A stretch of 64,000 bases of DNA from an uncultured bacterium (GTDB lineage Bacteria > Verrucomicrobiota > Verrucomicrobiia > Verrucomicrobiales > DEV007), in the NCBI GenBank assembly GCA_963977015.1, contig CAXBMO010000019.1, forward strand, positions 32,001 to 96,000, written 5' to 3'. A program made the position numbers and the translations under genes. The notes beneath the pieces were generated by a model, which did not search any database, was not told where the DNA came from, and saw nothing but the letters and a program-made list of their open reading frames with translations. Below are positions 19,206 to 64,000 of this stretch, piece after piece (positions within the stretch are counted from its first letter, which is position 1; each line of letters begins with the position of its first letter).

Positions 19206-19296
19206 AATACGCGGAGGCGAATCCCAAAGACAGCTTGGAGCGATCGATTGTGGAACGGACTCGTGCCTTCCCTTGCGGTTTCCTTTTTGGCGCTGG

Positions 19297-19902
19297 TTAG
19301 GAGGCGGATGCCAACCAATCCTTCAGCTTCGCCAAGGCCCGTCCCCGGTGGCTCATGCTGTTCTTAATCTCCGACGAGAGTTGGCCGAAGGTTTCGCAGT
19401 GGCCTTCGGGAATGAAGAGCGGGTCGTAACCAAAGCAGCCTTCGCCTTTTTCCTGATTCGCGAGGATGCCCTCGACGGCACCATCGAAGGTGGCGAGAAC
19501 CTGATTCTGGCTGGCGAGGGTGAGGACGCAACGAAAGCGGCCACTGCGCGCTTTTCCTTTGGCCCCGGTTTTGTCGAGTTCGACGAGGAGCTTTTTGCGG
19601 TTGGATTCGTTGGTCGCGTTTTCGCCGGAGTAGCGGGCGGAGTAGACGCCGGGCGCACCGTCCAGGGCATCGACTTCAAGCCCAGAGTCGTCGGCGATGA
19701 CGGTTGCTTCGGGCATGGCCTGGCTGGCGGCGAGGGCTTTGATGGCGGAATTTTCGTGGAAGGTGGTTCCGGTTTCCTCCGCGGGCTCAAGCTCGGGGAA
19801 GGCGGTCAGGTCCACGATTTCGTCGTAGAAGTCCGCAAGGATCTCGCGGAATTCCTCCGTTTTGTGGGTGTTGTGCGTGGCAACAATGAGCGTTTTGGAC
19901 AT
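19297..19902 (-). CDS. rdgB: Non-canonical purine NTP pyrophosphatase (RdgB/HAM1)
   Basis: ATHNTHK, ADDSGL, PGVYSARY, FGYDPLF, KNSMSHRGRA. Confidence 0.95.
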   Translation of the reverse strand: MSKTLIVATHNTHKTEEFREILADFYDEIVDLTAFPELEPAEETGTTFHENSAIKALAASQAMPEATVIADDSGLEVDALDGAPGVYSARYSGENATNESNRKKLLVELDKTGAKGKARSGRFRCVLTLASQNQVLATFDGAVEGILANQEKGEGCFGYDPLFIPEGHCETFGQLSSEIKNSMSHRGRALAKLKDWLASAS

Positions 19903-19929
19903 CGGCAGACCATGCTACATTCCTCCGAA

Positions 19930-22374
19930 ATGTCACACGGTCATCCCTTCGAACTCCTCTCTCCTGCCGGTAACTGGGATTGTGCCCGCGCGGCGGTGGC
20001 CAATGGCGCGGATGCGATCTATTTCGGGTTGCCGGCGTTCAATGCGCGGATTCGGGCGGACAACTTTACGGAGACGGATCTTCCGGAGCTGATGACGTTT
20101 CTGCACGAACGCGGCGTTCGCGGGTTTGTTGCGTTCAATACCCTCATTTTTACGGGCGAGTTGGAGGCGGCGGAGCGTCAATTGCGATTGATCCACGAGG
20201 CGGGCGTCGATGCGATCATTGTCCAGGATATCGGGTTGGCGAAGATGGCTCGGGCGATTTGTCCGGGCTTGGAGCTTCACGCCTCGACCCAGATGACAAT
20301 CACGTCGCCGGAGGCGTTGGAGTTTGTGAACGCGGCGTTCGAGTTGGATTGCGCGGTGATCGCGCGGGAGAATTCGCTGCGCGAGATGAAGTTGTTTCGC
20401 GCGGATGAAGCCGGGGCGGTGAAGCTGGAGACGTTCGTGCACGGGGCGCTGTGTGTGGCCTATTCCGGTCAATGCCTGACGAGCGAATCGCTCGGTCAAC
20501 GCAGCGCCAATCGTGGCGAATGCGCCCAGGCGTGCCGGATGCCGTATGACCTGATCGTCGATGGCGAGCAACGCGATCTGGGCGACAAGCGGTATTTGCT
20601 TTCGCCCCAGGATCTGGCGGGGATCGATGAGATTCCAGCTTTGATTGAGGCGGGGATCTCCAGTTTCAAAATCGAGGGGCGTCTCAAGACTCCCGAATAC
20701 GTGGCGGCGGTGACCCGCGTGTATCGGAAGGCGATTGATGCCGCCTTGAATGGGGAAGGGGAGCGGGCCAGTGAAGCTGATCGCTATGAATTGGAGATGG
20801 CGTTTTCGCGCGGGCTTCACAGCGGCTGGCTCAACGGGATCGACAACAAGAAGCTGGTTCATGCCCGGTTCGGGAAGAAGCGGGGCGCCTTTGTCGGGAC
20901 GATTTCGCAGGTGGGGCCGGATTGGGTCGAAGTGGAGCCTCAGGTTCCGGTGAAGAACGGCGATGGCGTGGTGTTTGATACCGGAGGCAACACGGACAAG
21001 GAGCAGGGTGGCCGAATTTATGGCGTCCATGGCAAGCGGCTCAGTTTCCAGCGGGAGAAGATTCGGTTTCAGGATCTGAAAGAGGGTGACCGGATTTGGA
21101 AAACGGATGATCCGGCCCTGAACGCGGAACTGCAGAAGTCGTGGAACGAATCGCGGCTCAAGCCTCAAAAGCAGATGTTGACCTGGGCGGTGGCTGGGCG
21201 GGCCGGGGATCCCTTGATCCTCACCGACTCAGGAACGGGAGCGAAGGTTGCTTCCTCGATTCCGCTGCAGGTCGCGGAACAACGGCCGCTGGCGGCCGAG
21301 TTTCTCCAGAAGCAGTTTGGCCGGCTCGGCAACACGGCTTACCAATTGGAGTCGCTGGATGTCGATCTGGAAGGCGAGGTGATGCTCCCGGTGAGCGAGC
21401 TGAACCGGATGCGGCGGGCGATGGTCGAGAAACTGGAGCAGGAGCCTGACGCGGCCAAACCGGCTCGTGTTTCGACGAACGTTTCCGTTGCGGAGTTGCT
21501 TCCCAAGCTTCCTGAGAACGACCGGGGTGCCGAACCGGTTCTTTATGTGTTGTGCCGCAATCAGGAGCAGGTTGATGCGGCGCTTTCCGCCAAGGTGGAA
21601 CGCATCTACGCCGACTTCGAGGATGTTCGGCGTTATCGCGACGTCGTGCGATCGGTTCGCGAGAGCGGTGTGAACTCGCGCATTTATCTGGCGACACCGC
21701 GCATCCAAAAAGCGGGCGAATCCGGCTTGTTCCGAGTCGTTGAAAAAGCGAAGCCGGACGGCGTTCTGGTTCGCAACCTGGGCGGAGTGCAGCACTTTCG
21801 CGAGCACGGCGAACTCGAGATGATCGGTGATTTTTCGCTCAACGTGGCCAACCCGATCAGCGCGGAATTTTTCCGGGGCCAGGGCTGTCGGAACCTGACG
21901 ATTTCCTACGATCTCAACATTGGCCAGGTGCTTGATCTCCTGGCGAAAGCGCCACCGGCCTGGTTCGAGATCACGCTGCATCAACACATGCCGATGTTTC
22001 ACATGGAGCACTGCGTGTTTTGCTCGTTCATCTCCGAAGGGACGGACGTCACCAATTGCGGGCGTCCCTGCGATACCCACGAAGTCGAGTTACGCGATCG
22101 CGTTGGTCAGCGCCATATTCTGAGCGCGGACGTGGGTTGCCGCAATACGCTCTACAATGGCCGGGCGCAAAGCGGCGCCCGATTCTTTGGGAACCTGCTC
22201 GATTCCGGGTTGAGACAGTATCGCGTGGAGTTGCTCAAGGAGAATCGCGAGGAGGCGGCCGCGACGATCACGGCCTATCAGGATCTCCTGAGAGGGAGTG
22301 AGGGCGGGACCCAACTCTGGGAACGCCTCCAAGTGGAGTCGAAGCTGGGAGTGGTCGAGGGAACGTTGGCCTGA
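19930..22374 (+). CDS. rlhA: U32-family protein with DUF3656; probable 23S rRNA 5-hydroxycytidine synthase
   Basis: ELLSPAG, HASTQM, ETFVHGALCVAYSGQC, NRGECAQACR, KIEGR; long (~810 aa) architecture. Confidence 0.85.
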   Translation: MSHGHPFELLSPAGNWDCARAAVANGADAIYFGLPAFNARIRADNFTETDLPELMTFLHERGVRGFVAFNTLIFTGELEAAERQLRLIHEAGVDAIIVQDIGLAKMARAICPGLELHASTQMTITSPEALEFVNAAFELDCAVIARENSLREMKLFRADEAGAVKLETFVHGALCVAYSGQCLTSESLGQRSANRGECAQACRMPYDLIVDGEQRDLGDKRYLLSPQDLAGIDEIPALIEAGISSFKIEGRLKTPEYVAAVTRVYRKAIDAALNGEGERASEADRYELEMAFSRGLHSGWLNGIDNKKLVHARFGKKRGAFVGTISQVGPDWVEVEPQVPVKNGDGVVFDTGGNTDKEQGGRIYGVHGKRLSFQREKIRFQDLKEGDRIWKTDDPALNAELQKSWNESRLKPQKQMLTWAVAGRAGDPLILTDSGTGAKVASSIPLQVAEQRPLAAEFLQKQFGRLGNTAYQLESLDVDLEGEVMLPVSELNRMRRAMVEKLEQEPDAAKPARVSTNVSVAELLPKLPENDRGAEPVLYVLCRNQEQVDAALSAKVERIYADFEDVRRYRDVVRSVRESGVNSRIYLATPRIQKAGESGLFRVVEKAKPDGVLVRNLGGVQHFREHGELEMIGDFSLNVANPISAEFFRGQGCRNLTISYDLNIGQVLDLLAKAPPAWFEITLHQHMPMFHMEHCVFCSFISEGTDVTNCGRPCDTHEVELRDRVGQRHILSADVGCRNTLYNGRAQSGARFFGNLLDSGLRQYRVELLKENREEAAATITAYQDLLRGSEGGTQLWERLQVESKLGVVEGTLA

Positions 22375-22385
22375 GCTGGTTGCGG

Positions 22386-22922
22386 TTAGGCGGCGCCACC
22401 GCGTTTCTTCTTTTTCGGAGCGTCCGTCACCCTTGCCTCCAGCAGTCCGCGATGAGCCTCGCCACCGATTTGATCCAGCACCCGCTGGTAGATTTTGCCC
22501 ATTTGCTCGGCTTCTTCTTCCGTGAGGTATTGAACGAAATTTTGTTCGATCAAGGGGCGGTAGGTTTTCCAGGCTTGATTGAGGGCCCGGCGGCCGGCTG
22601 CGCTCAGGCTGACCTGGAAGACTCTTCCATCGCTGCGGCTCTGCTTGCGCAATAGCAGGCCGCGTTCGGCCAGGCGGGCGGCGCGGCGGGACATTCCGCT
22701 TTTGCTGAGAAGCACCGCATCCGCCAGTTCCCCCATGGTCATGGTCTCATTCGTGGCCTCGTTGACGGTGAGAAGCACGTCGTAATCGCCGAAGGAGATG
22801 CAGCCCTCGGCCTGTAATCCTTCGTCAATCTTTTGGCAGGTCAAAGCATGGACGGTGAGGAACAGTCGCCATGCCACTTGCTGCGGCAGTTTGTCCGGAA
22901 AATTGGATGCTGGAGGATTCAT
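22386..22922 (-). CDS. MarR-family transcriptional regulator
   Basis: YDVLL, ELADAVLLSKSGMSR (HTH), DGR wing, LSAAG; start set at the ATG 22922. Confidence 0.88.
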   Translation of the reverse strand: MNPPASNFPDKLPQQVAWRLFLTVHALTCQKIDEGLQAEGCISFGDYDVLLTVNEATNETMTMGELADAVLLSKSGMSRRAARLAERGLLLRKQSRSDGRVFQVSLSAAGRRALNQAWKTYRPLIEQNFVQYLTEEEAEQMGKIYQRVLDQIGGEAHRGLLEARVTDAPKKKKRGGAA

Positions 22923-22972
22923 GAAGATGGGACAAGAACCCCGATCGGGGCTGTCTGCAAGTGCTGAGCAAA

Positions 22973-22990
22973 TAGTTGCACATGCAAATA
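22973..22990. promoter_or_regulatory. Candidate MarR operator (inverted repeat)
   Basis: TAGTTGCA-CA-TGCAAATA, a 7/8 inverted repeat in the divergent intergenic region between marR and the ABC operon. Confidence 0.6.
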
Positions 22991-23105
22991 AATGTCTGGG
23001 TTGGCATTGAAGATGCTCGATGGTTGAGGCGACTAGCAAGTCTTTTCCAATGTCCACGCCTTTTGCCAACTCTTCACCACTCACGCGTCATCGTGTGATT
23101 CTGTA

Positions 23106-23879
23106 ATGATTGATTTCGGAAGTTCCATCAACAGCGGATCTCGTCTCGGGTTAGGCGTAGCTGCGTGGGTCTGCTTTCTGGGAGGTTGGTACCTCCTGGC
23201 CACGTCCGGTTTGGCCAATGCCGCTCTCCTTCCGGATCCGCTTCAAGTGGGACGAGCGTGGTGCGAACTCTTTGCGGAGCGGGGGTTCCTTCATGACGTT
23301 GCACAGAGTGTAAAGCGGATCTTCCTGAGTTTTGGAATCGCGCTGTTGATCGCTCTTCCCCTTGGAATGTTGATGGGGGCGTTTGTCCCGGTGGAAGCAT
23401 TCTTGAATGCTCTCGTTTCTCCTTTTCGATATCTTCCGGCTCCGTCTTTTGTTCCGCTTCTACTGATGTGGTTGGGAACAGGGGATGGTCAAAAAGTGGC
23501 ACTTCTGGTGATTGGGGTGGTCTTTTTTTTGACAACGATGTTCATGGATAACACCCGGGCGGTGCGTCCGGAACTGATTGATTGTTCGCGAACGCTTGGT
23601 GCGAATCGATTGCGTGTTCTTACCCATGTAATACTTCCAGCCGCCCTACCCAGCTATGTAGATACGGCCAGGCAAATGCTGGCGGTGAGCTGGACCTATC
23701 TGGTGATCGCGGAAATCGTCGCCGCCAGCAACGGGATCGGAGCGATGATGATGCGGGCCAAACGCTTTGTTCAGGTAGACGACATCATGGCGGGCATCCT
23801 GACCATTGGAATTCTTGGGCTGCTGACCGATGCCGCGATTCGCTATCTCCATCGCCTGTTCTTTCGCTATCTCCACTAA
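23106..23879 (+). CDS. NitT/TauT-family ABC transporter permease
   Basis: LPDP, RYLPAP..PLLLMWLG, EAA-like loop SRTLGA, ILPAALP, LVIAE. Confidence 0.9.
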   Translation: MIDFGSSINSGSRLGLGVAAWVCFLGGWYLLATSGLANAALLPDPLQVGRAWCELFAERGFLHDVAQSVKRIFLSFGIALLIALPLGMLMGAFVPVEAFLNALVSPFRYLPAPSFVPLLLMWLGTGDGQKVALLVIGVVFFLTTMFMDNTRAVRPELIDCSRTLGANRLRVLTHVILPAALPSYVDTARQMLAVSWTYLVIAEIVAASNGIGAMMMRAKRFVQVDDIMAGILTIGILGLLTDAAIRYLHRLFFRYLH

Positions 23880-23906
23880 CTAAACATCAATACCACCACC
23901 AAACCT

Positions 23907-24983
23907 ATGACTACAATACATCGAAACCTGAGCGTCATTGCCGGCTGCTGCCTGCTCTTCTCTGGTTGCAGCAAACCTGAGGGCGGGGAGGCGGCTTCCA
24001 CGGAAGCCTCCGTGACGCCGCAAACCGTGAAAATCTCTCTCTTCTCCTGGCCGGGATACGCCTTCTGGTTCGTTGCGAAAGAGAAGAACCTCGTTCCGGA
24101 GTTGGATCTGGATCTTGTGATTATTGAGGATCCCTACGAGAGCTTTGCCCAGATGGCGGCCGGCCAGTTGGACGTGACCTCTTCCACCGTGGAATACGGC
24201 CCGATCGCAGCTGATCAGGATGTGCCCGTAAAGTTGGTGACCTACACCAACCCTTCTTATGGAACGGATAAGATCATCCTCGGCCCGGGAGTGACCAGTG
24301 CGGCAGATCTCAAGGGAAAGGAAGTTGCCGTTCTCGAAGGAGGCCTGACCCAGATCTATATGGGAATCTGGCTCGAGGAAAATGGCGTCAAATTTGACGA
24401 GGTAAAGTATAGCAACCTGATCATGGACGATGCGGTTGCAGCCATGGTCAGTGGCAAAGTGGCCGCTGGTGAGTTCTGGGAGCCTTTCGGCAGTAATGTA
24501 TTATCCAGTCTTCCCGGTTGCACGGTCGCGGCGACCTCAAAAGATCCGTATTATAAGAAAACCGCGCTCCTCGGAGACGGGATGTACATGAGTGGCTCTT
24601 TTTTGTCCGAGAAGCCGGAGCTCGCAAAGTTGACCTTGAAGGCTTACTTCAAAGCGGTTGAATTCTGGGAGGCCAACCCGGCCGAGGCCAATGCGATCAT
24701 GGCAAAAGGCCTGAACTTTCCGTTGGAAGACGTCGAAACCGTGATTGGAGCCTCCGGGGAGTCGAGCGACGGCGGAGTCTACGCATTCAACTATGAAGAA
24801 GCCGGCCAGTTCATGGGTGTCCTGGAAGGGGTGCCTCCCTTTGGCGGGAATGGCGAGATCAAGAATCATTGGAAGCTCACCAACGACTGGTGGGTGAAGT
24901 TCGGAGCGGTCGGGAAAGACTATCCGATGGAATCCGGCGTCGATCTGGCACCCTTCACGGCGCTTGCTGAAGAAGGCCTCTAA
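23907..24983 (+). CDS. NitT/TauT-family ABC substrate-binding lipoprotein
   Basis: Lipobox LFSGC; SWPGY, SYGTD, DLKGK, WEPF. Confidence 0.88.
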   Translation: MTTIHRNLSVIAGCCLLFSGCSKPEGGEAASTEASVTPQTVKISLFSWPGYAFWFVAKEKNLVPELDLDLVIIEDPYESFAQMAAGQLDVTSSTVEYGPIAADQDVPVKLVTYTNPSYGTDKIILGPGVTSAADLKGKEVAVLEGGLTQIYMGIWLEENGVKFDEVKYSNLIMDDAVAAMVSGKVAAGEFWEPFGSNVLSSLPGCTVAATSKDPYYKKTALLGDGMYMSGSFLSEKPELAKLTLKAYFKAVEFWEANPAEANAIMAKGLNFPLEDVETVIGASGESSDGGVYAFNYEEAGQFMGVLEGVPPFGGNGEIKNHWKLTNDWWVKFGAVGKDYPMESGVDLAPFTALAEEGL

Positions 24984-25029
24984 GGAAGACCCGCTCACCC
25001 CTTTTATAGTGCTTGTTTCATCCTTGCCC

Positions 25030-25761
25030 ATGCCCAAGCCCGCGGGCCCTGGCTGTCTCCGGTTTCCGGAGATGGTCAGGGTTCCGCAAGGGGAAGGCAT
25101 CATGGGCGCCGTTACGGAAGACAAGTTTGCAACCTCGGTGGAGCTTCCGCCGACACGAACCCATTTTTCGCGGGAGTTTGCGCTCAGCCGAACGCCGGTG
25201 ACCCAGGCGCAATGGAGCGAGGTGATGGGGGAGCTTCCGCGGGAGTGTCCTACTGGGGTTGATGCGACCTGCCCGGTTGTGGGAGTGTCCTTTGCCGATG
25301 TCATGATCTATCTGGAGAAACTTTCCCAGTTGCGTGGGGAGACCTACCGTCTTCCGAGCGAGGCTGAGTGGGAGTATGCCTGCCGCGCGGGTTCGGTCTC
25401 CATTTTTCCCTTTGGATCCAACATCAGCCTGGGTGATGCCAATTATCTGTATGATGAGCGGGGGACGGCCATCGGCTGCGGCGCCCTCACTCCAGTGATG
25501 ACGTATCCCGCGAACGCGTTTGGGTTCTGCGACCTGTTGGGAAACGTCTGTGAGTGGACCGCCGATCTGTGGCATCCGAGTCACGACGGCGCTTCTCCCA
25601 ACGGCGCGGCGCGGACCGGCGGAGCGAAAACGAATTGCCGGACCATCCGCGGCGGTGCGTGGGATCATCTTCCCCGGGTTCTGCGCGCTTCCTGGCGCGA
25701 TTGGGCTCCGGAAGAGGCCCGCTGGGACAATCTGGGCTTTCGCGTAGCCCATAACCTTTGA
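25030..25761 (+). CDS. FGE-sulfatase (SUMF1/EgtB C-terminal-like) domain protein, non-canonical
   Basis: PVTQAQW, RLPSEAEWEYACR, NAFGFCDLLGNVCEW, RGGAW, GFRV. The catalytic Cys pair after RGG is absent. Confidence 0.85.
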   Translation: MPKPAGPGCLRFPEMVRVPQGEGIMGAVTEDKFATSVELPPTRTHFSREFALSRTPVTQAQWSEVMGELPRECPTGVDATCPVVGVSFADVMIYLEKLSQLRGETYRLPSEAEWEYACRAGSVSIFPFGSNISLGDANYLYDERGTAIGCGALTPVMTYPANAFGFCDLLGNVCEWTADLWHPSHDGASPNGAARTGGAKTNCRTIRGGAWDHLPRVLRASWRDWAPEEARWDNLGFRVAHNL

Positions 25762-25768
25762 AGAACCA

Positions 25769-26641
25769 ATGAAACTCTCTCTTTTTAAAACACTCTGGGG
25801 ACATGAGTCCTCGCTTTCGGATGCGATCCAATGCTGCCACGATGCCGGCTTTCAAGGCATTGAAAGTCCCGCCCCGCGCGATGGGTCCGAGCGGAAGGCC
25901 TTCTTTGAGGCGCTGGAGGCTGCCGACCTGAAATGGATTGCGGAAGTCAGCACCTGCACCCTGGACGGGACCTACGTTCCGCAGCCTGGTCGCAGCGTTA
26001 CCGATCACCTGGATTCGCTTCGCGAGGGGGTGGAGCGGAGCCTCACTGGAACCCCACTTTTTATCAATACCATGGCTGGGTACGATGCGTGGAGCATTGC
26101 CGATGCCATTGCGTTTTATCAGGGGGTTGTGAAGCTGGAGGAGGAACTGGGAATCCCGATCTCTGCGGAGACGCATCGAGGTCGGTCCACTTACAGCCCG
26201 TGGATTACGCGGGACATTTTATTGGAGACACCGGACTTGCGACTCACCTGTGATTTCAGTCACTGGTGCGTGGTGAGCGAGCGCCTGATTCTCGACGAAG
26301 AACCAGAGATTCTCCAGCTTGCCGCGAAGCACGCGTATCACATTCAGCCGCGGATTGGGTATGGCCAGGGGCCCCAGGTTCCCGACCCCCGTGCTCCGGA
26401 ATATCAGGAAGCGCTCCAGGCTCACGAACGTTGGTGGACGGTGCTTTGGGAGGCGATGGCGGCTCGCGGGAGGCGGGAAATGACCATGACGCCTGAGTTT
26501 GGGCCGGATGGTTACCTTCAATGTGCACCGTTCACCAGGGTGCCTGTCGCCGACCTTTGGGACATCAACACCTGGGTCGGGCATCGCCAGTTGGAACGCT
26601 TTCAGAACCACTTTCAAAATCAAACCATCGTATCCTCATGA
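25769..26641 (+). CDS. Sugar phosphate isomerase/epimerase-like TIM-barrel protein
   Basis: FKTLWG start; putative metal ligands in ETHR, DFSHW, HIQPR and PEFGP. Confidence 0.8.
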   Translation: MKLSLFKTLWGHESSLSDAIQCCHDAGFQGIESPAPRDGSERKAFFEALEAADLKWIAEVSTCTLDGTYVPQPGRSVTDHLDSLREGVERSLTGTPLFINTMAGYDAWSIADAIAFYQGVVKLEEELGIPISAETHRGRSTYSPWITRDILLETPDLRLTCDFSHWCVVSERLILDEEPEILQLAAKHAYHIQPRIGYGQGPQVPDPRAPEYQEALQAHERWWTVLWEAMAARGRREMTMTPEFGPDGYLQCAPFTRVPVADLWDINTWVGHRQLERFQNHFQNQTIVSS

Positions 26642-27873
26642 CAACACTAACCGAACCATTACCTCCCGTCCAATCCACCAAGGACGAGTCCCTTTTCGCG
26701 GCGATTCTCGCTTCGGCGGAGAAACCGCGCGAAAAATCAACCAGCCTTCCCTCTGCGGCTTACCACGATCCTGAGTTCCTCAAGTTCGAGGAAGCTGAGA
26801 TATTCAGGAAAGAATGGATCTCACTCTGCCATGTTTCACAGGTGGCCAAGGCAGGCGATTTCGTTCGTGTCGATGTCGCCGGCGAACCGATGTTGGTCGT
26901 TCGCGGAAAAGACATGGAGATCAAGGTCCTGTCCCGCACCTGTCGTCACCGGGGCATGGAAATCATGCCTTCCGGGTTTGGGCATCCGAATGAAGGGAAC
27001 CAACGCGTCATCCTTTGCCCTTATCATCTCTGGAGTTATGATCTCAACGGCAAATTGGTTGGAGCTCCGGAAATGCAGGAGGCCGCGGAGTTCGACCGCA
27101 GCGAGGTCTGTCTCCACCAATATAGAAGCGAGGTTTGGGAAGGGTTTGTCTTTGTGACACTCTCCGACGACATTCCTCCCGTCGCCGAAAAGTATGCTCA
27201 ATTGAAGGACGACTTTGTCGGGAGATGGGACATGGGGGATGGAGAGTTGGTTTGGTCAGCTCATTGGGAATGCAATTTCAACTGGAAGATTCTTCTGGAG
27301 AACTTCATGGAGGCCTACCATCACCTCGGTGCCCACATGAAGACGCTGGAGCCGTTCCTGCCGGCCAAGGGATGCTGGACGGAGCCTTACGATCCGGAAT
27401 TCTCCTGCATGCATCTTCCGCTCAAGGACAGCATGATCGAGGAAATTCAAAAAACGAAAGACGCCGGCACTCCGTTTCCGGTCTTTCCGACCCTGGAACT
27501 GGATGACTACTGCAAGTGGTGGGTCTTCCTGGGGAACCCGAACTTCCTGCTCTTCTCCGCACCGGACCGGGTTTACTGGTATCGCCTGCTTCCCACCGGG
27601 CCGGAGACCTGCACGCTCATGACCACCATGATTGTGCCGAAGGCGGCCTTGGAAATGCCGGACTACGAAGCCGTGCTCGAGAAGGAAATCGCCGCGGGAA
27701 TCGAGTTTCACATGGAAGACATGGAAGTCTGCGCCGCCACCCAGCGCGGTGTCAAATCAACGGGCTTCACCCCGGGACGTCTCAGTCATTTGGAGCAACC
27801 CATCTGGCACTTTCAAAAATACCTGGCTGAGGTGATTCGGAAATCCTCAGTTGGTCAATCCCTTGCCCAGTAA
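26638..27873 (+). CDS. Rieske non-heme iron oxygenase alpha subunit (CntA/GbcA/choline monooxygenase-like)
   Basis: Rieske CRHRG...CPYHLW; mononuclear Fe [16 protein letters not shown] and ED; ATGA-coupled to the upstream gene. Confidence 0.9.
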
Positions 27874-27880
27874 CATCAAG

Positions 27881-29242
27881 ATGATATCCAATTCAAAAAT
27901 TCAGGCTCTCCAGGAGTCGCTCAAGGCGCAGGGCGTCAAGTACTGTGTCGGCGCCTATGTCGATATCCACGGAGTGCCGAAGGGGAAGTTCGTTCCGATC
28001 GATCACTTCCAGCATTTTGCCCACGGGTCCGAGCTTTACACCGGCTATGCGCTGGATGGCCTGGGACAGCGACCGAATGATGACGAGATTGCCTCCGTTC
28101 CTGACGTTGATTCAATCACGATCCTGCCGTGGAACAAGGAAGTCGCCTGGATGCCGGCGGACAACACGTTCAAAGGGGAGCCTTATCCCATCAATACGCG
28201 GGTTGCCTTGAAGAAGCAGTTGCAAGCCGCCGCCGACATGGGGTTTGGATTCAATCTGGGGATTGAGTGTGAAGTCTTTGTCGTCAAACAAAGGGAGGAT
28301 GGAAGTCTGGAGATCCCGAACGACGACGATGATCTGGAGAAGTCGTGTTATGATGTGAAACGCTTCCTCGACCGCTACACGTGGTTGGATAAGGTCTCGA
28401 CCACGATCAACGATCTGGGTTGGGGACTCTATTCCCTCGATCATGAAGATGCGAACTCGCAGTTCGAGTTCGACTTCAATTATGCAGATGCGTTGACGAT
28501 GTGTGATCGCTACATCTTCTTCCGTCTCATGGCCAAGCAGTATGCTGCCGAGGAAGGATTGCTCGCCACCTTCATGCCGAAGCCGTTCGCCGATAAAACG
28601 GGTTCGGGCGCGCATTTTAACATGTCCCTGTTCGACAAGGATACCGGGGAGAACCTTTTCAAGTGTGCCCCTGAAGCCGATCCGCGTGGATTGGGTTTGA
28701 CCGAGCTGGGCTACCAATTTATTGGCGGAATTCTCAAGCACGGCCGGGCGCTGTGCTGTGCTTATGCACCAACGGTAAATAGTTACAAACGACTGGTTCG
28801 TCGGGGCTTGATGTCCTACTACACATGGGCACCCGTGTTCAATAGTTACGGCAAGAACAACCGGACGAATGCGATGAGGGTGCCAATGGGTGGCGGTCGC
28901 GTTGAGTCCCGCAATGCCGACGCCTCCTGCAATCCCTACCTCGCGGCGACCCTTGCCCTCGCGGCGGGTCTGGAAGGAATTCGCGAAAACCTGGATCCCG
29001 GCGAGGCGATCGAGGACAACCTTTACGAACTCACTCCGGAGCAATTCGCAGAACGGGGAATCGAAGAATTACCAACCACGCTGAAGGAGGCGGTGGAAGC
29101 ATTCTCGGCTTCGCCCTTTGTGGAGGATGTGTTGGGTTCGGAACTCCGACAGGAATTCATCACTTATAAATCCGAGGAATGGCGTCAATACCACCAGCGA
29201 ATCAGTCAGTGGGAATATGAGCAGTATGCAAGGTTGTTTTGA
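27881..29242 (+). CDS. glnT: GlnT/GmaS-type glutamine synthetase-family ligase (gamma-glutamyl-amine ligase)
   Basis: [45 protein letters not shown]. Confidence 0.85.
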
Positions 29243-29297
29243 TGCAGCAGAGCGTGGATGCCAATGAACTCGATTTCTTTTACGTAGGTAAGGTTTC

Positions 29298-30287
29298 TTA
29301 GTCCGTGAGCACCGGCGCCAGATAGAGGTTGCGATAGGAAACCGCAGTGTGGTCACCCTGAATATAGATGGGGCCGGGCGCCGAGGGATCGGTATGGATG
29401 GCCCCGGCCGTCGGTCCCGGCACGGGCTGATTGTCGATCACGGTGACGCCGTTCAAAACGACGGTGACATGGCGATCCACCAGGGTAAGATCATAGGTTT
29501 GCCATTCACCTCCGGGTTTTCCGGCATTCGTCGATGGGGGAATCCTCCCAAAGATTGCCCCAACGCCCTGGAGGCCCTGCATCCGGCTGTCGCGATCCAC
29601 GACCTGAGCCTCATACATCCCCCGAAGATAGATGCCGCTGTTGCGCTGCGCGCCGACCAGGAATTCGACATGTAGCCAGAAATCCTCAAAAACCGCTTCG
29701 GTCTTCAGGTTCGCATGATCGCCTGTGGCGCTGAAGTCGGTTTTCGGGGTGCTGTTGACGAGCATGCCATCCTTGACGCTCCATCCGTTGATTTTGTCAG
29801 GCTCATGAGGGATCCAGCCGGTCAGGTCCCTGCCATTGAAGAGCGCAATGGGATGCCCAAATCGAACCTTGGAGAGGTCCGGTGCTTTGGTTGGCATGGG
29901 CGGAATCTTCGTGCCTGTAAACGCGACGTTCTCCGCGGTGCCATCAGGAAAGGTCTGCAAAATTGTCCCGTCGAGTTTTCCATCGACGATCCCAACGTCG
30001 ACCGTTTGCGTTGGCACGCCCTCCTTCTTCCGTTTCTTGAGCGCAAATTTGATCCGGCCATCAACGACTTCGACGTTTTCAAACGGACCGGCAGATCCAA
30101 CATACAATCGGAAGAACACGACCGGATTTCCTTCCTTTTCCTGAATGCTCATCCAACCGGGAACACCGGATTCAACCTCGAGCGACCAGTCCCCCCAAAG
30201 GCTCTCGGGAATCGATTGAGCATGCACCGAAGAGATGAAGAGCAGGAACAGGCAGGGCAGGAGTTTGCGATGGAGAGTCATGAACAT
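29298..30287 (-). CDS. DUF1080 (3-keto-disaccharide hydrolase-like) secreted protein
   Basis: Signal peptide; LFNGRDLTGW, NSGIYLRG, GEWQTY, QGDH, YRN. Confidence 0.85.
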   Translation of the reverse strand: MFMTLHRKLLPCLFLLFISSVHAQSIPESLWGDWSLEVESGVPGWMSIQEKEGNPVVFFRLYVGSAGPFENVEVVDGRIKFALKKRKKEGVPTQTVDVGIVDGKLDGTILQTFPDGTAENVAFTGTKIPPMPTKAPDLSKVRFGHPIALFNGRDLTGWIPHEPDKINGWSVKDGMLVNSTPKTDFSATGDHANLKTEAVFEDFWLHVEFLVGAQRNSGIYLRGMYEAQVVDRDSRMQGLQGVGAIFGRIPPSTNAGKPGGEWQTYDLTLVDRHVTVVLNGVTVIDNQPVPGPTAGAIHTDPSAPGPIYIQGDHTAVSYRNLYLAPVLTD

Positions 30288-30454
30288 GGGGTTGGGAAGT
30301 GAGCGTTAAAGGGGCCATCAAGGAGATGCCCGCCGCGTTTGAAATGCCAACGTTTTTCTGAGTGGGGATTCGAAAAATGACGGGGCGGTAATGAAAATAG
30401 AATCGATTTGAAGGAAACTGGGGTTTCATCTTTTTGACCAGCCGCAAATTCCCC

Positions 30455-31843
30455 ATGAAATGGTTCCCCCAACTCTTCCTCGCTCTGACCGTGTTCTCCA
30501 GTAGTGCACTCGGTCAGGATCAGCCCAACTTCCTGTTTCTGCTTTCCGACGACCAGGCCTGGAACGAACTCTCCTGCCAGATGCATCCGGAAATGCCGGA
30601 GTCGAAGAGCCAAATCGTGCAGACTCCAAACATCGCGAAACTGGCGAGCCAGGGGATGCGATTCAGCGCGGCATATTCACCGACATCCGTGTGTTCGCCC
30701 TCGCGCATCAGCCTGCAAACGGGGAAGAGTCCGGCCCAATGTGGTTGGACCAAGGCGGGGCCGGTGATGAGAGCTGGAGCCGGGTTCAAGCTCATTCCGC
30801 CGCCGAGCCGGAGCCACATCGAAGCTGGCGAAGTGACGATTGGCGAGCTGCTGCAATCCGCCGGCTATCGCACGGCACATTATGGCAAGTGGCATCTTGG
30901 GGGCGGCGGTCCCGGGAATCATGGTTACGACGAGAGCGATGGAGATACTGGAAACCGGGACGCAGCTCCACACGTCGAGCCCAATCCGGTCGATATCTTT
31001 GGGATGAGCAGTCGCGCTCAGGCGTTCATGGAGACGAGCCGGAACGCTGGCAAACCCTTCTTCATCCAGATGTCGTTTTACGCCCTGCATTATCCGCAGA
31101 ATGCGAGCAGGTCGCTGGTCGAGAAATATCAGGCCTTGAATCCGCGCGGTAGGGAAAGGGAGATTGGGCGTGCTGCGATTTCCGAAGATCTGGATCGTGG
31201 GGTGGGGGAGTTGATGGCCAAAATCGAGGAATTGGGGATCGGGGACCGCACCTACGTGATTTACATGTCGGACAATGGCAGCTCGACCGGCAACACGCTG
31301 AATGGCGGGAAAGGCGACGTTTGGGAAGGAGGGATCCGGGTGCCGCTGATGGTTCGGGGGCCCGGGATTGCGGCGAACTCATGGAATCATCAACGCGTCG
31401 TCGGTTACGACTTTTATCCCACGTTCTGCAAATTGGCCGGTGTGAAGCAAAAGCTGCCTTCGACGACCGAAGGAGGACTGATCGATCATCTCTTCCACGG
31501 AAGTTCCGAGCCTGTGAAACGTCCGCGCGAGGAACTGGTTTTCCATTTTCCGCACTACCAGGGCGATGCGCCTCACACCGCGTTGTTTCTTGGCGACTAC
31601 AAGTTGATCCGGTTCTACGAGGATCATTCGCTCCAACTCTACAACGTCAGTGAGGATATCGGAGAACGGAACAATTTGTTGAGCGAGAAGCCGGATTTGG
31701 CGGACCAGATGTTGGCACGGATGGATGCTTATCTGGAGGCGGTGAACGCGGGATTGCCAACGCCAAATCCGAACTATGATCCGGAGAATCCGCCCAATCT
31801 TCGAGAGGTGAACCGGGGCAAGAAGGGCGGAAAGAGAAAGTGA
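30455..31843 (+). CDS. Sulfatase (Cys-type)
   Basis: PNFLFLLSDD, CSPSRISLQTG, GKWHLG, SDNG, WEGGIRVP. Confidence 0.92.
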   Translation: MKWFPQLFLALTVFSSSALGQDQPNFLFLLSDDQAWNELSCQMHPEMPESKSQIVQTPNIAKLASQGMRFSAAYSPTSVCSPSRISLQTGKSPAQCGWTKAGPVMRAGAGFKLIPPPSRSHIEAGEVTIGELLQSAGYRTAHYGKWHLGGGGPGNHGYDESDGDTGNRDAAPHVEPNPVDIFGMSSRAQAFMETSRNAGKPFFIQMSFYALHYPQNASRSLVEKYQALNPRGREREIGRAAISEDLDRGVGELMAKIEELGIGDRTYVIYMSDNGSSTGNTLNGGKGDVWEGGIRVPLMVRGPGIAANSWNHQRVVGYDFYPTFCKLAGVKQKLPSTTEGGLIDHLFHGSSEPVKRPREELVFHFPHYQGDAPHTALFLGDYKLIRFYEDHSLQLYNVSEDIGERNNLLSEKPDLADQMLARMDAYLEAVNAGLPTPNPNYDPENPPNLREVNRGKKGGKRK

Positions 31844-31994
31844 AACGGACCGGAAGATTCCCGGTCTCACAGGTTATCCGATCCTCGAGGCGGAAGGCTA
31901 TCGCAGGACTCGCCAAACGGAGGTTTGTCAGGGGCGATCAAGGCAAGAAATCGCGCTTGCCATGGTCTGGAGCAGTCTGCAAGAGTTGCGGCCT

Positions 31995-33809
31995 ATGAGC
32001 AACCCGCGCCTGGCTTACCTTTTCAGCCGTTATCCCATTGTTTCCCAAACCTTTTGCGATAACGAGATTCTCGGGCTGGAGGAAGCTGGGTGGGACGTCG
32101 TGGTGGCCTCCCTGAATCCGCCGCTGGACGACTTTCGTCACGCCCGGTTGGATGCGTTGAAGGCGCCGGTCCTCTATCCACCGCCTCCCAATGTGTTGAA
32201 GCTGCTGGAGGAAGAGGCGCGTGCCGAGGGAACCTGGCCGCAGGAATTGATCGACCAACACGAACAGGCGTTTGGCGCGGATACCAAGCCGGATCAGCGC
32301 TGCCGAAACGCACTTCCGTTGGTTAGCCAGTTGCGGAGGGAGGGAATCGATCACGTCCACCTGCACTTCGCCAATCGAGCCACCCATTCCGCGTTGTTCT
32401 TGAAGGCCATGTCGGGCATTCCCTATTCGTTTACTCCCCAGGCCAAGGACTTCCTCGTCGATATCGAACCGAAGCTCCTGGAAGAACTCTGCCGTGAGGC
32501 GGAGTTCGTGGTTGCGCCCTGTGATTACGCCCAAAAGAAGCTGGCGGAGATGTGTCCGGATAGCGCGGACAAGATCGTGCGGATCTACAACGGGATCGAT
32601 CCGTCCGGCTATCGCCAAGCCCAACCGAAGGCGGGGCCGGACGTGGTGCGGATTGCGAGTTGCGGCCGGCTCATCGAGTTCAAGGGGTTTCATCACCTGA
32701 TTGCCGCAGTTGGCGAGGCGCGTTCCAATGGCGTTCGCGTGGAATTCGAGTTGCTCGGAGATGGCCCCTGGCGCGAACGGTTGGAGAACCAAACGGATGA
32801 GTTGGGTCTTCGCGACCGGGTCACCTTTCGCGGAACGGTAGGGCTCGACGAGATGAAGTCCACGTTCGAACGGATTGACGCCTTCGTCCTGGCCTGCATT
32901 TTCGACCAGGAAGGAGCGTCGGACATGTTTCCCACCGTCATCACCGAGGCGATGCTTTCCGGGCTCGCCGTGGTCAGCACTCCCATTGCCGGCGTGCCGG
33001 AGATGGTGATGGAAGGCAAAACCGGGATGTTGGTGGAACCCGGAGACGAAAAGGCGCTGGCCGACGCGCTGTGCCGATTCGCGAACGAGCCGGATCTGGC
33101 CATCAACATGGGCAAGGCCGGGCGCGAGCGGGCCGTCGAGGTCTTTTCACGGCAGACCACCCTGGCGCAGCTTCAGGATCGCCTGAAGGAAGCGAAAGCC
33201 CGGAGTTCGGCTCCATCGCCTCCTGCTGTTGCTGCCTTTTTTGAGCTGAAGGACGGAGACGGCGATCGCTTCAACGTCGAGCGGGCCGCGATGGCGGAAA
33301 TGTCGGGATCCCTCTGGGTGGCGGCGGGGCTGGCTTCCCCGAACGAGCTGAAAGCGATCGGAGATCTGGAAGCGCTGAATTGGTTGCCGGACGGAATGGT
33401 GCTGGAGATGGAGTGGCGGAGTCACAATGCCGAACGAACGCGGCTGGTTGAACTCCGCAGCGAACTCGGAACTTCGGTCGATGGGGAAACGTTTTTTTCA
33501 GCGGCGCGCCGGGCCTTGTGGTGGGCGGAGGATTTGCGTCGCCGTGGCGGAGCGAAATTGCTGTTTGCGGGGGACACCACGGAGTGTCTCGTCGTCTGGT
33601 TGACGAGCAGGATCACCGGAATTCCCTTCGTCGCCGCGCTGGAACGTGAATCCGCGTTCTCCAAAAACCTGAGAACCCGGATTTTCGAGGCGGCCAACGC
33701 GATTGCGCTTCAAAACCAGGAAGACCCCCTTTTGCGCTCCGCCCGCCGGGCGAAACCCGATGCTCGAATCAGCGCGTTGCGGAACTGGCTGCAATCCGTA
33801 TCAGGCTGA
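31995..33809 (+). CDS. Glycosyltransferase family 4 (WcaL-like) with C-terminal extension
   Basis: YLFSRYPIVSQTF, HLHFA, GRLIEFKG, FPTVITEAM, GVPEMV. Confidence 0.85.
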   Translation: MSNPRLAYLFSRYPIVSQTFCDNEILGLEEAGWDVVVASLNPPLDDFRHARLDALKAPVLYPPPPNVLKLLEEEARAEGTWPQELIDQHEQAFGADTKPDQRCRNALPLVSQLRREGIDHVHLHFANRATHSALFLKAMSGIPYSFTPQAKDFLVDIEPKLLEELCREAEFVVAPCDYAQKKLAEMCPDSADKIVRIYNGIDPSGYRQAQPKAGPDVVRIASCGRLIEFKGFHHLIAAVGEARSNGVRVEFELLGDGPWRERLENQTDELGLRDRVTFRGTVGLDEMKSTFERIDAFVLACIFDQEGASDMFPTVITEAMLSGLAVVSTPIAGVPEMVMEGKTGMLVEPGDEKALADALCRFANEPDLAINMGKAGRERAVEVFSRQTTLAQLQDRLKEAKARSSAPSPPAVAAFFELKDGDGDRFNVERAAMAEMSGSLWVAAGLASPNELKAIGDLEALNWLPDGMVLEMEWRSHNAERTRLVELRSELGTSVDGETFFSAARRALWWAEDLRRRGGAKLLFAGDTTECLVVWLTSRITGIPFVAALERESAFSKNLRTRIFEAANAIALQNQEDPLLRSARRAKPDARISALRNWLQSVSG

Positions 33810-63747: not shown

Positions 63748-64000
63748 CTACTCGGCCAACGCCACCTGCACTTCACCATCCTGCACCCGGGTTTTGTAAC
63801 ATTGCACGTCTTCCACTGCGGGTGGGCTGAGCACGCCTCCGGTTTTGATCGAGAAACAGGCCCCGTGCCAGGGACATTCCACTTCGTCGCCTTCGATCAG
63901 TCCTTCGCTCAAGGGGCCCCCGGAATGCGGGCAGGTGTCGTCGATGGCAAAGAACTCGCCGTCGACGTTGAAAATTGCGATGGTTCGACCTTCGAGTTCG
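63748..64000 (-). CDS. Rieske [2Fe-2S] ferredoxin (partial, 5' end outside the window)
   Basis: Not in the ORF track. Reads ELEGRTIAIFNVDGEFFAIDDTCPHSGGPLSEG...VECPWHG...VALAE*, with CxH..CxxH ligands. Confidence 0.9.
   Translation of the reverse strand, partial: ELEGRTIAIFNVDGEFFAIDDTCPHSGGPLSEGLIEGDEVECPWHGACFSIKTGGVLSPPAVEDVQCYKTRVQDGEVQVALAE

Follow-up and report, generated by a model that had tools for sequence, protein, structure and literature searches.

The operon described here is of marine verrucomicrobial origin and lies within a stretch of 64,000 nucleotides, the whole of which is referred to as the window. A MarR gene on the minus strand faces six closely packed genes on the plus strand that encode, in this order, a TauC-like permease, an NMT1/SsuA-like binding protein, a PvdO-like FGE-fold protein, a TIM barrel, a Rieske oxygenase and a GS-like ligase. 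With the likely start codons, the permease gene and its successors are separated by 27, 46 and 7 bp, a 4-bp ATGA overlap and 7 bp, in agreement with the initial annotation, which had described six co-oriented genes with gaps of at most about 46 bp and one ATGA overlap. The reading frame of the MarR-family regulator (22386–22922; Pfam MarR_2 2.4e-10, MarR 1.1e-7) is open as far as 23084 (22386–23084), and its likely start yields a protein of 178 residues, compared with 173–175 in relatives. A palindromic operator-like site, ATAGTTGCACATGCAAATAA, is located at 22972–22991. The sequence TTGCACATGCAA at 22976–22987, which occurs once in the window where 0.03 occurrences would be expected, forms part of this conserved 20-bp site, for which the family consensus is TTATTTGC-N4-GCAAATAA. 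With two or fewer mismatches allowed, the operator core was found in 28 of 32 MarR–permease intergenic regions of relatives, compared with 35 of 640 random segments matched for length, and a divergent MarR gene is present no more than 4.2 kb upstream of the TIM gene in 34 of 60 related loci. Both the divergent regulator and the palindrome that had been noted earlier are thus confirmed, and the palindrome is conserved in relatives.

The permease (23106–23879; PF00528, 1.4e-19) is of the NitT/TauT type and matches the NCBIfam families SaoP, TauC and SsuC, in each case under the cut-off. The substrate-binding protein (23907–24983; PF09084, 3.4e-14) belongs to the NMT1/SsuA family and has a lipobox-like N-terminus by visual inspection. 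It also scores below the cut-offs of TIGR01728 (2.9e-28) and TIGR03427 (1.4e-10), the latter representing the binding protein associated with urea carboxylase. An ABC importer had been annotated at this position; permease and binding protein are borne out by Pfam, whereas no ABC ATPase is encoded in the cluster. An orthologous ATPase is found instead on a second contig, C1 (C1:103726–104622), and is 72% identical to the ATPases of relatives.

The third gene (likely ATG at 25030, 25030–25761, in a frame that opens at 24964) encodes an FGE-fold protein (PF03781, 2.5e-45) that matches FGE structures at about 3e-29. Its best solved relative is PvdO (PDB code 5hha), aligned over the full length at 1.4e-47, and PvdO is also its top NCBIfam match, below cut-off. 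The segment that follows the RGG(A/G)W motif, DHLPRVLRASWRDWAP, which we take to be where FGE carries its catalytic cysteine pair, contains no cysteine in any of 16 sequences; PvdO presumably lacks these cysteines as well. Two other cysteines, C118 and C174, are nearly invariant. No signal peptide is visible by eye, and the protein is predicted to be cytoplasmic.

The fourth gene (25769–26641) encodes a divergent TIM barrel for which we propose a role as a hemiaminal lyase. The protein has no Pfam match of its own, while PF01261 was found in its homologues. The predicted model, with a mean pLDDT of 84.3, contains eight β-α units, and a Foldseek search returned ketose 3-epimerases, AsbF and IolE with TM-scores of 0.55 to 0.63 and identities of at most 17%. 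Residues E134, D162, H165, H191 and E243 are invariant. Fold and conserved acidic and histidine residues are those expected of a xylose-isomerase-like TIM barrel (PF01261), and the invariant side chains may well bind a metal.

The Rieske non-haem iron oxygenase alpha subunit (26638–27873) retains C102, H104, C127 and H130, the [2Fe-2S] ligands of the CxH...CxxH pattern, in 15 of 15 sequences (PF00355, 1.1e-18). Also invariant are H228, H233 and D361 of the 2-His-1-carboxylate iron site (PF00848, 5e-30), which we take to be the mononuclear iron ligands from the motif pattern. NCBIfam and PDB matches place the protein nearest to the N-dealkylating Stc2/CntA/GbcA group, in line with the initial annotation, with E-values of only 5e-36 to 2e-28 (PDB code 3vca, 5e-36; CntA, 1.7e-28). 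Only the N-terminal half aligns with Stc2, and the curated matches all fall far below their thresholds (151 bits for GbcA, where the cut-off is 670). No beta-subunit gene is seen among the open reading frames of the cluster, and Pfam and NCBIfam profiles detect no reductase or ferredoxin domain in its seven proteins. A flavodoxin-like FMN reductase is encoded in a paralogous cluster on C1. Small Rieske-type reading frames are present elsewhere in the genome.

The last gene (likely ATG at 27881, 27881–29242, in a frame that opens at 27851) encodes a GS-like glutamate–amine ligase of the GmaS/GlnT type (TIGR03105, 624 bits). The closest solved structures are a glutamate–methylamine ligase (PDB code 9qur, 2.1e-112) and RhGmaS (PDB code 7cql, 3.3e-91). 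Thr64 occupies the position of Asp50' of glutamine synthetase and Trp326 that of the Glu flap, as in 47 of 47 relatives, and because of these two substitutions the ligase is, judged by its residues, not an ammonia-dependent glutamine synthetase; together with the GmaS-like best match, this disposes of the ordinary ammonia-specific enzyme that the initial annotation had considered. A 750-residue frame with a GS domain on contig C4 could be the housekeeping glutamine synthetase. The counterparts of RhGmaS K30', Y147, D177, E179, E186, R312 and R317 are all kept, D177, E186 and R312 being conserved in the HMMER alignment to 7cql, and the catalytic aspartate and glutamate of GmaS are found in 47 of 47 verrucomicrobial sequences; catalytic roles for D177, E186 and R312 are given in PMC7948447. 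Five of the seven residues of the methylamine pocket (Y147, Q175, D177, E179, E186, N188, K30') are preserved, with Q175 replaced by Ser and N188 by Asp in all 47; the ligase is not a canonical GmaS. GmaS works with an N-methylglutamate synthase (MgsABC) and dehydrogenase. A search of the genome (95% complete) for MgsB (PF01493) gave a single match, a 1531-residue frame about as long as the large subunit of glutamate synthase, and the earlier statement that mgs genes are missing from the window thus extends to the genome as far as this search goes.

To assess conservation of the neighbourhood, 80 related loci were compared, the individual counts referring to 72, 71, 63, 60, 52 or 51 of them. 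The TIM gene has the FGE gene directly upstream in 70 of 72 loci and is followed by the Rieske gene in 62 of 71, and the genes do form a conserved unit. In 38 of 51 loci a GS-like gene is found upstream at a distance of no more than 10 kb; its position directly behind the Rieske gene is particular to this genome and was seen in 0 of 63 related loci. In relatives it is transcribed in a separate unit, together with another importer and a creatininase gene. The unit of the relatives is placed between this importer–GS–creatininase cassette and genes for guanidine carboxylase. Upstream, within 10 kb, genes for a creatininase-family protein and for an ABC ATPase are likewise each present in 38 of 51 loci; within 10 kb downstream, UAAP genes are found in 32 of 52, urea/guanidine carboxylase in 30 of 52 and allophanate hydrolase in 28 of 52.

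The guanidine carboxylase genes of the present genome are on C1, outside the window cluster. The paralogous cluster on C1 comprises a second binding protein (SBP2), permease, creatininase, GS2, Rieske2, an SDR, FGE2, a deacetylase, TIM2, a NikR-like protein, UAAP1/2, carboxylase and allophanate hydrolase. Among 201 genomes of the order Verrucomicrobiales, UAAP1 is present in 35 of 35 GS-positive and in 26 of 29 TIM-positive genomes. TIM and GS genes occur together in 25; the four TIM-positive genomes that lack GS carry only paralogues of 34–42% identity, with no cluster families nearby. The oxygenase module is not an obligatory companion of the GS-like gene: ten of the 35 genomes that carry GS gave no match to TIM.

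Proteobacterial homologues of the TIM barrel offer a further link to guanidine. In the methylguanidine demethylation system described in PMC12508155, the 2-oxoglutarate enzyme MgdH hydroxylates methylguanidine to a stable hemiaminal that requires a lyase, MgdL, whose gene sits beside that of MgdH and for which D49 and R51 were published (V. boliviensis). On a Paraburkholderia (P. sprentiae) plasmid, a MarR gene on the opposite strand is followed by a TIM gene and a 2-oxoglutarate/Fe dioxygenase gene, the TIM homologue thereby holding the position beside the dioxygenase that MgdL holds beside MgdH. Directly after the dioxygenase come a Guanidine-I riboswitch, UAAP1, UAAP2, a Guanidine-II riboswitch, uca and atzF. 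Of the 77 residues that are invariant in the verrucomicrobial family, the plasmid TIM protein, 48% identical to that of the window, has 69, polar core included, and a riboswitch-controlled P. sprentiae binding protein is 27% identical to the one of the operon. Related dioxygenases from Acinetobacter (48% identical to the plasmid dioxygenase) and Novosphingobium (52%) are followed not by a TIM barrel but by a Pfam-less protein of 293–295 residues with a D-x-R motif, which from position, size and motif we take to be the MgdL family, its motif being offset by 8 residues from the published D49/R51. This protein and the TIM barrel show no homology (hhalign probability 0.1%). In Kozakia and Klebsiella no carboxylase genes lie near the TIM–dioxygenase pair. 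More distant TIM homologues (31–37% identical) are paired with PhyH-type dioxygenases in sugar-type contexts, and a single function for the whole family is therefore not required. Neither the C1 region nor any of the 80 related loci gave a match to two MgdH-like dioxygenase queries, nor was such an enzyme seen in the window cluster, and the presumed MgdL protein matched nothing in the whole genome or in the loci and the C1 region.

The embedding in guanidine islands, the co-occurrence of GS with UAAP1 and the pairing of TIM with MgdH-like dioxygenases make N-substituted guanidines the likely substrate class in our analysis, ahead of generic N-alkyl amines or betaines. The operon is probably a conserved add-on to a guanidine nitrogen-scavenging system that dealkylates guanidine-type compounds with an undescribed enzyme set. 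We consider the chances evenly balanced that it is a MarR-controlled accessory module of guanidine nitrogen scavenging in Verrucomicrobiales, and put at about the same level the more specific proposal that Rieske enzyme and TIM barrel are an analogue of MgdH/MgdL acting on an imported alkylguanidine. Binding protein and permease would import an N-alkylated guanidine, methylguanidine being the simplest candidate, with an ATPase borrowed from the C1 cluster. The Rieske monooxygenase would hydroxylate the carbon on the guanidine nitrogen; Stc2, GbcA and CntA perform the same N-alkyl hydroxylation chemistry on N-alkyl ammonium compounds. The metal-dependent TIM barrel, as a non-homologous stand-in for MgdL, would then split the stable hemiaminal into guanidine and an aldehyde (formaldehyde in the case of a methyl group). 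Guanidine would enter the established pathway of guanidine carboxylase, CgdAB (UAAP1/2) and allophanate hydrolase, whose genes are directly downstream in most relatives and on C1 here. The GS-like ligase, which normally travels with a creatininase-fold hydrolase, may use ATP to γ-glutamylate a nitrogen compound of the pathway, be it an amine or of guanidine type, and the PvdO-like protein would accompany the Rieske version of the module. The model gains support from the intact cluster and iron ligands of the Rieske enzyme and from a GFA-family (formaldehyde-activating) gene in 24 of 51 upstream flanks of relatives. That it leaves ligase and FGE-fold protein without a role in spite of their tight linkage counts against it, as do the lack of a Rieske reductase gene in the window cluster, the location of this genome's guanidine carboxylase genes on another contig, the TIM–dioxygenase pairs of Kozakia and Klebsiella and the sugar-type contexts of the more distant TIM homologues. 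Relative to the original proposal, in which an N-alkyl amine is oxidatively cleaved and/or glutamylated, the unit, the Rieske enzyme and the ligase class stand, while the context favours guanidines. The accompanying claim that no pathway with this gene set had been described holds for the literature searched, but the partly analogous MgdH/MgdL system was published in October 2025 (PMC12508155).

An order of events in which glutamylation comes first appears to us unlikely, though the least so of the alternatives. From methylamine or another alkylamine, either imported or released, the ligase would form a γ-glutamyl-alkylamide, the Rieske enzyme would hydroxylate the N-alkyl carbon of this amide, and the TIM barrel would split the stable carbinolamide into glutamine and aldehyde, a route by which the amine nitrogen would be assimilated without the N-methylglutamate pathway. 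Glutamylated amines are oxidised in the aniline (AtdA1/TdnQ) and isopropylamine (IpuC) pathways, and the GS gene directly adjoins the rest of the operon in the window and accompanies an orthologous TIM in each of the 25 genomes that have one. Also in line with this order are the retained catalytic residues of GmaS, the failure to find MgsB other than the frame of glutamate-synthase size, and the GFA-family gene in the loci of relatives. In one planctomycete, the TIM gene is located between GS and creatininase genes, which fits a ligase-tied role of the TIM barrel equally well. However, TIM homologues stand beside MgdH-like dioxygenases and guanidine operons that lack a neighbouring GS gene, the relatives have GS in another transcription unit that includes a separate importer and creatininase, and GS occurs without TIM as noted above. 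The ligase pocket moreover departs from the methylamine-specific one at two positions throughout, and the presence of an importer in the operon points to a substrate of the oxygenase module that comes from outside the cell.

Still less probable is the demethylation by the Rieske enzyme of an N-methylated osmolyte or quaternary amine of the betaine, carnitine or stachydrine type, with capture of the methylamine by GmaS and no relation to guanidine. Among solved or curated Rieske proteins Stc2, CntA and GbcA are indeed the closest, and a glutamate–methylamine ligase is the nearest solved GS relative, but the low curated scores and half-length Stc2 alignment, the NitT/TauT (SsuA/uca) type of the binding protein, the failure to find MgsB and the strong link to the guanidine carboxylase pathway, in neighbourhoods and genomes alike, oppose it. 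A sulfonate/sulfatase unit, in which an SsuA/TauC-type importer is combined with an FGE for maturation of a sulfatase whose gene lies 1.2 kb downstream (30434–31843), is suggested by the SsuA, TauC and SaoP/SaoX family matches and the FGE-sulfatase Pfam domain, but is highly improbable given a cysteine-free, PvdO-like FGE-fold protein that lacks a visible signal peptide and has the TIM and Rieske genes as its conserved partners, a sulfatase gene lying past a convergent gene, and sulfatase-like matches in only 6 of 82 loci (80 related and 2 own) at 24–30% identity.

Several known systems resemble parts of the proposed module. With PvdO of pyoverdine maturation the third protein shares the FGE fold, but the genomic context is entirely different, and C118, C174 and the absence of a visible signal peptide are its own. 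The alpha-only monooxygenases Stc2, GbcA and CntA, the best sequence relatives of the Rieske enzyme, have the same Rieske and iron ligands; the context here is guanidine-related rather than that of betaine or carnitine, and no cognate reductase gene is adjacent. GmaS (RhGmaS 7cql; 9qur) has in common with the ligase the catalytic residues, a Trp for the flap glutamate and no Asp at the Asp50' position, whereas the usual partner of the ligase is a creatininase-fold hydrolase within guanidine carboxylase islands, and no MgsB was found in the genome. The MgdH/MgdL system differs in its 2-oxoglutarate dioxygenase, where a Rieske enzyme is found here, in a partner whose presumed family has no detectable homology to the TIM barrel, in having neither the FGE-fold protein nor the GS-like ligase that are added here, and in control by riboswitches instead of MarR and a NikR-like protein. 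Both nevertheless combine an oxygenase and a dedicated second enzyme with a NitT/TauT-type importer. Adjoining guanidine carboxylase genes, as in the MgdH/MgdL system, are seen in the relatives (UAAP genes downstream in 32 of 52 loci) but not in the window, since in this genome they are on C1. The proposed logic would also be the same, namely hydroxylation of the N-alkyl carbon, splitting of the hemiaminal and delivery of guanidine to the carboxylase.

The MarR gene, on the minus strand, and the operon diverging from it occupy 22386-29242 of the window. The operon consists of six plus-strand genes, as the initial annotation had described. The permease (BPD_transp_1) is of the TauC/SsuC/SaoP kind, the binding protein belongs to the NMT1/SsuA family and the third product has the FGE-sulfatase fold, each according to Pfam and NCBIfam; the Rieske alpha subunit matches PF00355 and PF00848 (Pfam). 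The GS-like protein (27881-29242) scores 624 bits against a cut-off of 470 for TIGR03105 ('type III glutamate-ammonia ligase', GlnT), and the 290-aa TIM-barrel protein (25769-26641) has no match in Pfam or NCBIfam. When gene starts were picked to fit the lengths in relatives, intergenic gaps of 27, 46 and 7 bp, an ATGA overlap and a last gap of 7 bp were obtained, in agreement with the tight packing first described. The proposed ABC importer holds in part: permease and binding protein are present in the cluster but an ATPase is not, and the nearest ATPase of the right kind is encoded outside it, on contig C1 of the same genome. Two ABC ATPase genes 21 kb upstream (186-1865), whose products share 39-41% identity with the ATPase of the guanidine-type importer, serve another transporter.

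The operator-like palindrome noted earlier is well supported. In a pattern search its core, TTGCACATGCAA (22976-22987), had a single match in the window where 0.03 would be expected, and the whole site is a 20-bp palindrome with the consensus TTATTTGC-N4-GCAAATAA and arms of 5 bases. With up to two mismatches allowed, 28 of the 32 intergenic regions between MarR and permease genes in relatives contain the core, compared with 35 of 640 control segments. A promoter and terminator scan gave counts not above those of shuffled sequences, and an Rfam scan of 19000-32000 returned no match. The operon is followed by a convergent gene for a 3-keto-disaccharide hydrolase (DUF1080) and by a sulfatase gene (29298-31843), which are not conserved with it: the hydrolase gene and the upstream flanking gene match in none of the related loci, and the sulfatase gene matches weakly in six of 82 loci scanned.

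For the comparison with relatives, 80 loci around TIM homologues were collected, with one genome per species, and neighbours were counted by tblastn. Homologues with names come from Verrucomicrobiales (Akkermansiaceae, Luteolibacter, Haloferula), and cultured strains with the cluster include Luteolibacter algae KCTC 22040 and Luteolibacter sp. AS25 (L037 and L024); the best-matching sequencing runs are labelled marine metagenomes, which is a hint at habitat only. The neighbourhood proves to be conserved, with the FGE-fold gene directly 5' of TIM in 70 of 72 loci with sufficient flank and the Rieske gene directly 3' in 62 of 71 (either side, 55/59). Of 62 related loci, 41 encode both binding protein and permease, and a divergent MarR gene occurs in 34 of 60. 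A GS gene immediately after Rieske was seen in none of 63 related loci. Relatives instead encode the GS ortholog (75-85% identical) in an upstream unit comprising a second-type binding protein (SBP2), a second permease, an ATPase, GS and a creatininase-family protein; for each of the GS, creatininase-family and ATPase genes, 38 of 51 loci have a copy no more than 10 kb upstream. The ligase gene has moved into the operon in the genome analysed here. Searches of a plasmid collection with the GS-like and Rieske proteins returned only distant relatives (up to 41% and 34% identical, respectively) in unrelated contexts. Two short contigs, from a Pirellulaceae MAG (L041) and a Bifidobacteriaceae MAG (L074), carry genes that share 53-79% identity with TIM, Rieske and FGE of Verrucomicrobiales and are probably binning errors.

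Our understanding of bacterial guanidine metabolism dates only from 2017, and genes of this metabolism are frequent neighbours of the cluster. In relatives, the region 3' of the Rieske gene encodes a NikR-like regulator (29/52 loci), the DUF1989 proteins UAAP1/UAAP2 (32/52), urea carboxylase (TIGR02712; 30/52) and allophanate hydrolase (28/52), a set that corresponds to the guanidine carboxylase pathway (Gca, CgdAB and AtzF) in the excerpted text of PMC12508155. In the window's own genome this pathway is located on C1, within a paralogous super-cluster at approximately 96000-116200 (loci L092 and L093). One strand encodes SBP2, a permease, a creatininase-family protein, a second ligase (GS2, 46% identical), a CMD-family protein, an FMN reductase, Rieske2 (46%), an SDR, FGE2, a polysaccharide-deacetylase-like protein, TIM2 (50%), a NikR-like protein, UAAP1/2, urea/guanidine carboxylase and allophanate hydrolase; an ABC ATPase and an Ahr-like aldehyde reductase are on the other. 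The NikR-like protein of relatives, which combines RHH and NikR_C domains, sits before the UAAP genes in those 29 loci. No guanidine riboswitch was detected with Rfam in five verrucomicrobial loci (L092, L093, L037, L008 and L012), and the NikR-like protein may be the guanidine sensor of Verrucomicrobiales.

The association extends beyond physical linkage. In five genomes in which the FGE-TIM-Rieske locus stands on its own, UAAP genes and a GS ortholog of 78-85% identity were found elsewhere in every case. Of 201 genomes sampled from the order, 29 matched the TIM family, 35 had a GS-like gene and 53 had UAAP1; TIM and GS occur together in 25, and UAAP1 is present in 26 of the 29 TIM-positive and all 35 GS-positive genomes, counts that are descriptive and not statistics because related genomes are not independent. 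The four TIM-positive, GS-negative genomes (G007, G020, G117 and G158) contain proteins of 34-42% identity with no cluster families nearby, and these weak matches were set aside as paralogues after inspection of their context. Ten genomes have the GS-like gene and no TIM match; the two inspected show a GS-creatininase-SBP2 arrangement, in one case adjoining NikR-UAAP-carboxylase. A planctomycete locus (L131) is arranged as Rieske (27% identical); SBP2-unknown-GS (56%); TIM (48%)-creatininase-MBL-DinB-permease-ATPase, a DinB-family protein taking the place held by the FGE-fold protein in Verrucomicrobiales.

The AlphaFold model of the TIM protein is an eight-fold β/α barrel (mean pLDDT 84.3, pTM 0.86). 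Foldseek matched it to xylose-isomerase-like barrels, namely ketose 3-epimerases, AsbF, IolE and the C-glycoside deglycosidase DgpB-C, with TM-scores of 0.55-0.63 and identities of at most 17%, and a profile search of PDB sequences returned AsbF only (E = 0.017). The protein is therefore a divergent member of the xylose-isomerase-like fold. Sixteen residues are present in all eight sequences compared (E32, H80, D106, E134, H136, R137, D162, H165, E171, H191, R195, Q203, E211, W223, E243 and Y249).

The best TIM homologues in the plasmid collection adjoin oxygenases. On Paraburkholderia sprentiae plasmid pl2WSM5005 (L094), a minus-strand MarR gene is followed by TIM (48% identical)-2OG/Fe dioxygenase-UAAP1-UAAP2-uca-atzF-ABC. 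Of the 77 positions that never vary among the verrucomicrobial TIM proteins, 69 are unchanged in the P. sprentiae protein. In this plasmid region (11254-15988 of the locus), Rfam detects two Guanidine-I riboswitches, one preceding UAAP1 and the other the binding-protein gene, and a Guanidine-II riboswitch that precedes uca. TIM-dioxygenase pairs also occur in Kozakia and Klebsiella, in other contexts, and more distant homologues (31-37% identical) lie near PhyH-type dioxygenases in Bacillus, Runella and Spirosoma.

The first methylguanidine-demethylating enzymes were published in October 2025. According to the excerpted text of that report (Sinn et al. 2025, PMC12508155), the carboxylase operon of V. 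boliviensis encodes MgdH, a 2OG/Fe dioxygenase whose hydroxylation of methylguanidine yields N-(hydroxymethyl)guanidine. The half-life of this product exceeds 1 h, and it is converted to guanidine and formaldehyde by MgdL (UniProt A0A265DXW6), a 'hypothetical protein' whose catalytic residues are D49 and R51. Homologues of the P. sprentiae dioxygenase in Acinetobacter sp. NCu2D-2 (48% identical) and Novosphingobium (52%) are followed by a 293-295-aa protein that is assigned to no Pfam family and in which D57-x-R59 is conserved; the genes around the Acinetobacter pair encode an ABC importer, an SMR exporter and allophanate hydrolase. From its position, size and D-x-R motif we infer that this protein belongs to the MgdL family; a homologue search with it returned Acinetobacter proteins only and confirmed no link to the V. 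boliviensis protein. It showed no homology to the TIM protein (hhalign probability 0.1%) and had no match in the whole genome of the window; the 80 related loci and the region on C1 contained neither this protein nor an MgdH-like dioxygenase. Comparison of neighbours thus indicates that the second gene beside homologous dioxygenases encodes either an MgdL-like protein or a TIM barrel, which makes the P. sprentiae locus a TIM-for-MgdL variant of the published system, and that the TIM barrel of Verrucomicrobiales is paired with a Rieske oxygenase instead.

The closest solved relatives of this Rieske protein are Stc2 (3vca, 5e-36), 4qup, 3n0q and CntA, and its best curated NCBIfam family is GbcA, far under the cut-off. 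Its cluster ligands (C102, H104, C127 and H130) and iron ligands (H228, H233 and D361) are invariant in 15 sequences. Enzymes of the Stc2/GbcA/CntA type hydroxylate carbon attached to a cationic nitrogen, which is the chemistry that the proposed module would require. The cluster in the window contains no reductase gene. Small Rieske-domain ORFs are found at 63793-64000 on the minus strand (about 117 aa, running past the end of the window) and on contig C3, and either could be a ferredoxin-type electron carrier. The best solved relative of the FGE-fold protein is PvdO, over its full length (1.4e-47). None of 16 sequences has a cysteine in the segment that holds the cysteine pair of FGE; C118 and C174, elsewhere in the protein, are nearly invariant. 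Modules with a Rieske oxygenase include the FGE-fold gene, whereas those with a dioxygenase lack it. A predicted complex with the Rieske protein gave a score that was unspecific relative to the control.

Best among solved relatives of the GS-like protein are the glutamate-methylamine ligase 9qur (2.1e-112) and RhGmaS (7cql, 3.3e-91), compared with 1e-70 for true glutamine synthetases. We mapped its residues by alignment onto those named in the excerpted text of PMC7948447. It keeps the counterparts of K30', Y147, D177, E179, E186, R312 and R317 (RhGmaS numbering), and has Trp at the position of the GS flap glutamate and Thr at that of GS Asp50', which favours a glutamylating ligase, as first suggested, over an ordinary ammonia-specific glutamine synthetase. 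In each of the 47 verrucomicrobial sequences, which include both paralogue types, Ser replaces Q175 and Asp replaces N188. We therefore classify the protein as a GmaS-type glutamate-amine ligase whose altered pocket is predicted from these substitutions to be more acidic and roomier. A separate 750-aa frame in the genome has a GS domain. As far as a search for MgsB shows, the absence of mgs genes, previously noted for the window, extends to the genome, in which it found only a 1531-aa frame of glutamate-synthase size; the ligase works outside the N-methylglutamate pathway.

In the best-supported reading, permease, binding protein, Rieske oxygenase and TIM barrel would form a MarR-controlled module for alkylguanidine uptake and oxidative N-dealkylation. 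By the gene neighbourhood, the chemistry known for these families and the precedent set by MgdH/MgdL, an alkylguanidine would be taken up and N-dealkylated by the Rieske and TIM proteins, and the guanidine produced would pass to the carboxylase pathway. In 24 of 51 upstream flanks, MarR and the creatininase-family gene have a GFA-family gene (PF04828, 1.2e-23) between them, for example at 4437-4853 of L018 (138 aa, glutathione-dependent formaldehyde-activating enzyme family). This gene, which is absent from the cluster in the window, fits formaldehyde release, in a family that is functionally broad. The main rival has the ligase act first, the Rieske and TIM proteins then acting on a gamma-glutamyl amide. 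A further scheme, which we regard as rather improbable, has the ligase, given its larger pocket with added acidity, glutamylate guanidine or an alkylguanidine. The creatininase-fold metallohydrolase that is its usual companion would then cleave the acylguanidine at the amidine carbon to give glutamine and urea, so that one guanidine nitrogen would enter glutamine directly at the cost of ATP and the remainder would follow the urea carboxylase and allophanate hydrolase route; Rieske, TIM and FGE-fold proteins would constitute a previously undescribed three-protein dealkylase preparing substituted guanidines. Betaine catabolism and a sulfonate substrate both fit the genomic context poorly.

The earlier remark that no described pathway with this gene set is known still stands for the literature outside subscription journals, where no description was found of a Rieske oxygenase, TIM barrel or FGE-fold protein in guanidine metabolism, or of the pair of GS-like ligase and creatininase-fold protein; a term search of the reviews checked returned no mention of any of them. 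The GmaS-like ligase and the creatininase-fold hydrolase, both uncharacterised, regularly travel with the guanidine carboxylase pathway. If the dealkylation module is confirmed, three large superfamilies gain new enzyme functions, and a wider range of organic nitrogen is to be expected for these bacteria in the sea and in lakes. The comparison suggests that an order abundant in aquatic habitats and soil carries out demethylation of the methylguanidine type with Rieske, TIM and FGE-fold proteins, which would amount to a double non-orthologous displacement of oxygenase and lyase: where the MgdH/MgdL system has a 2OG dioxygenase and a lyase, Verrucomicrobiales have a Rieske oxygenase and a TIM barrel.
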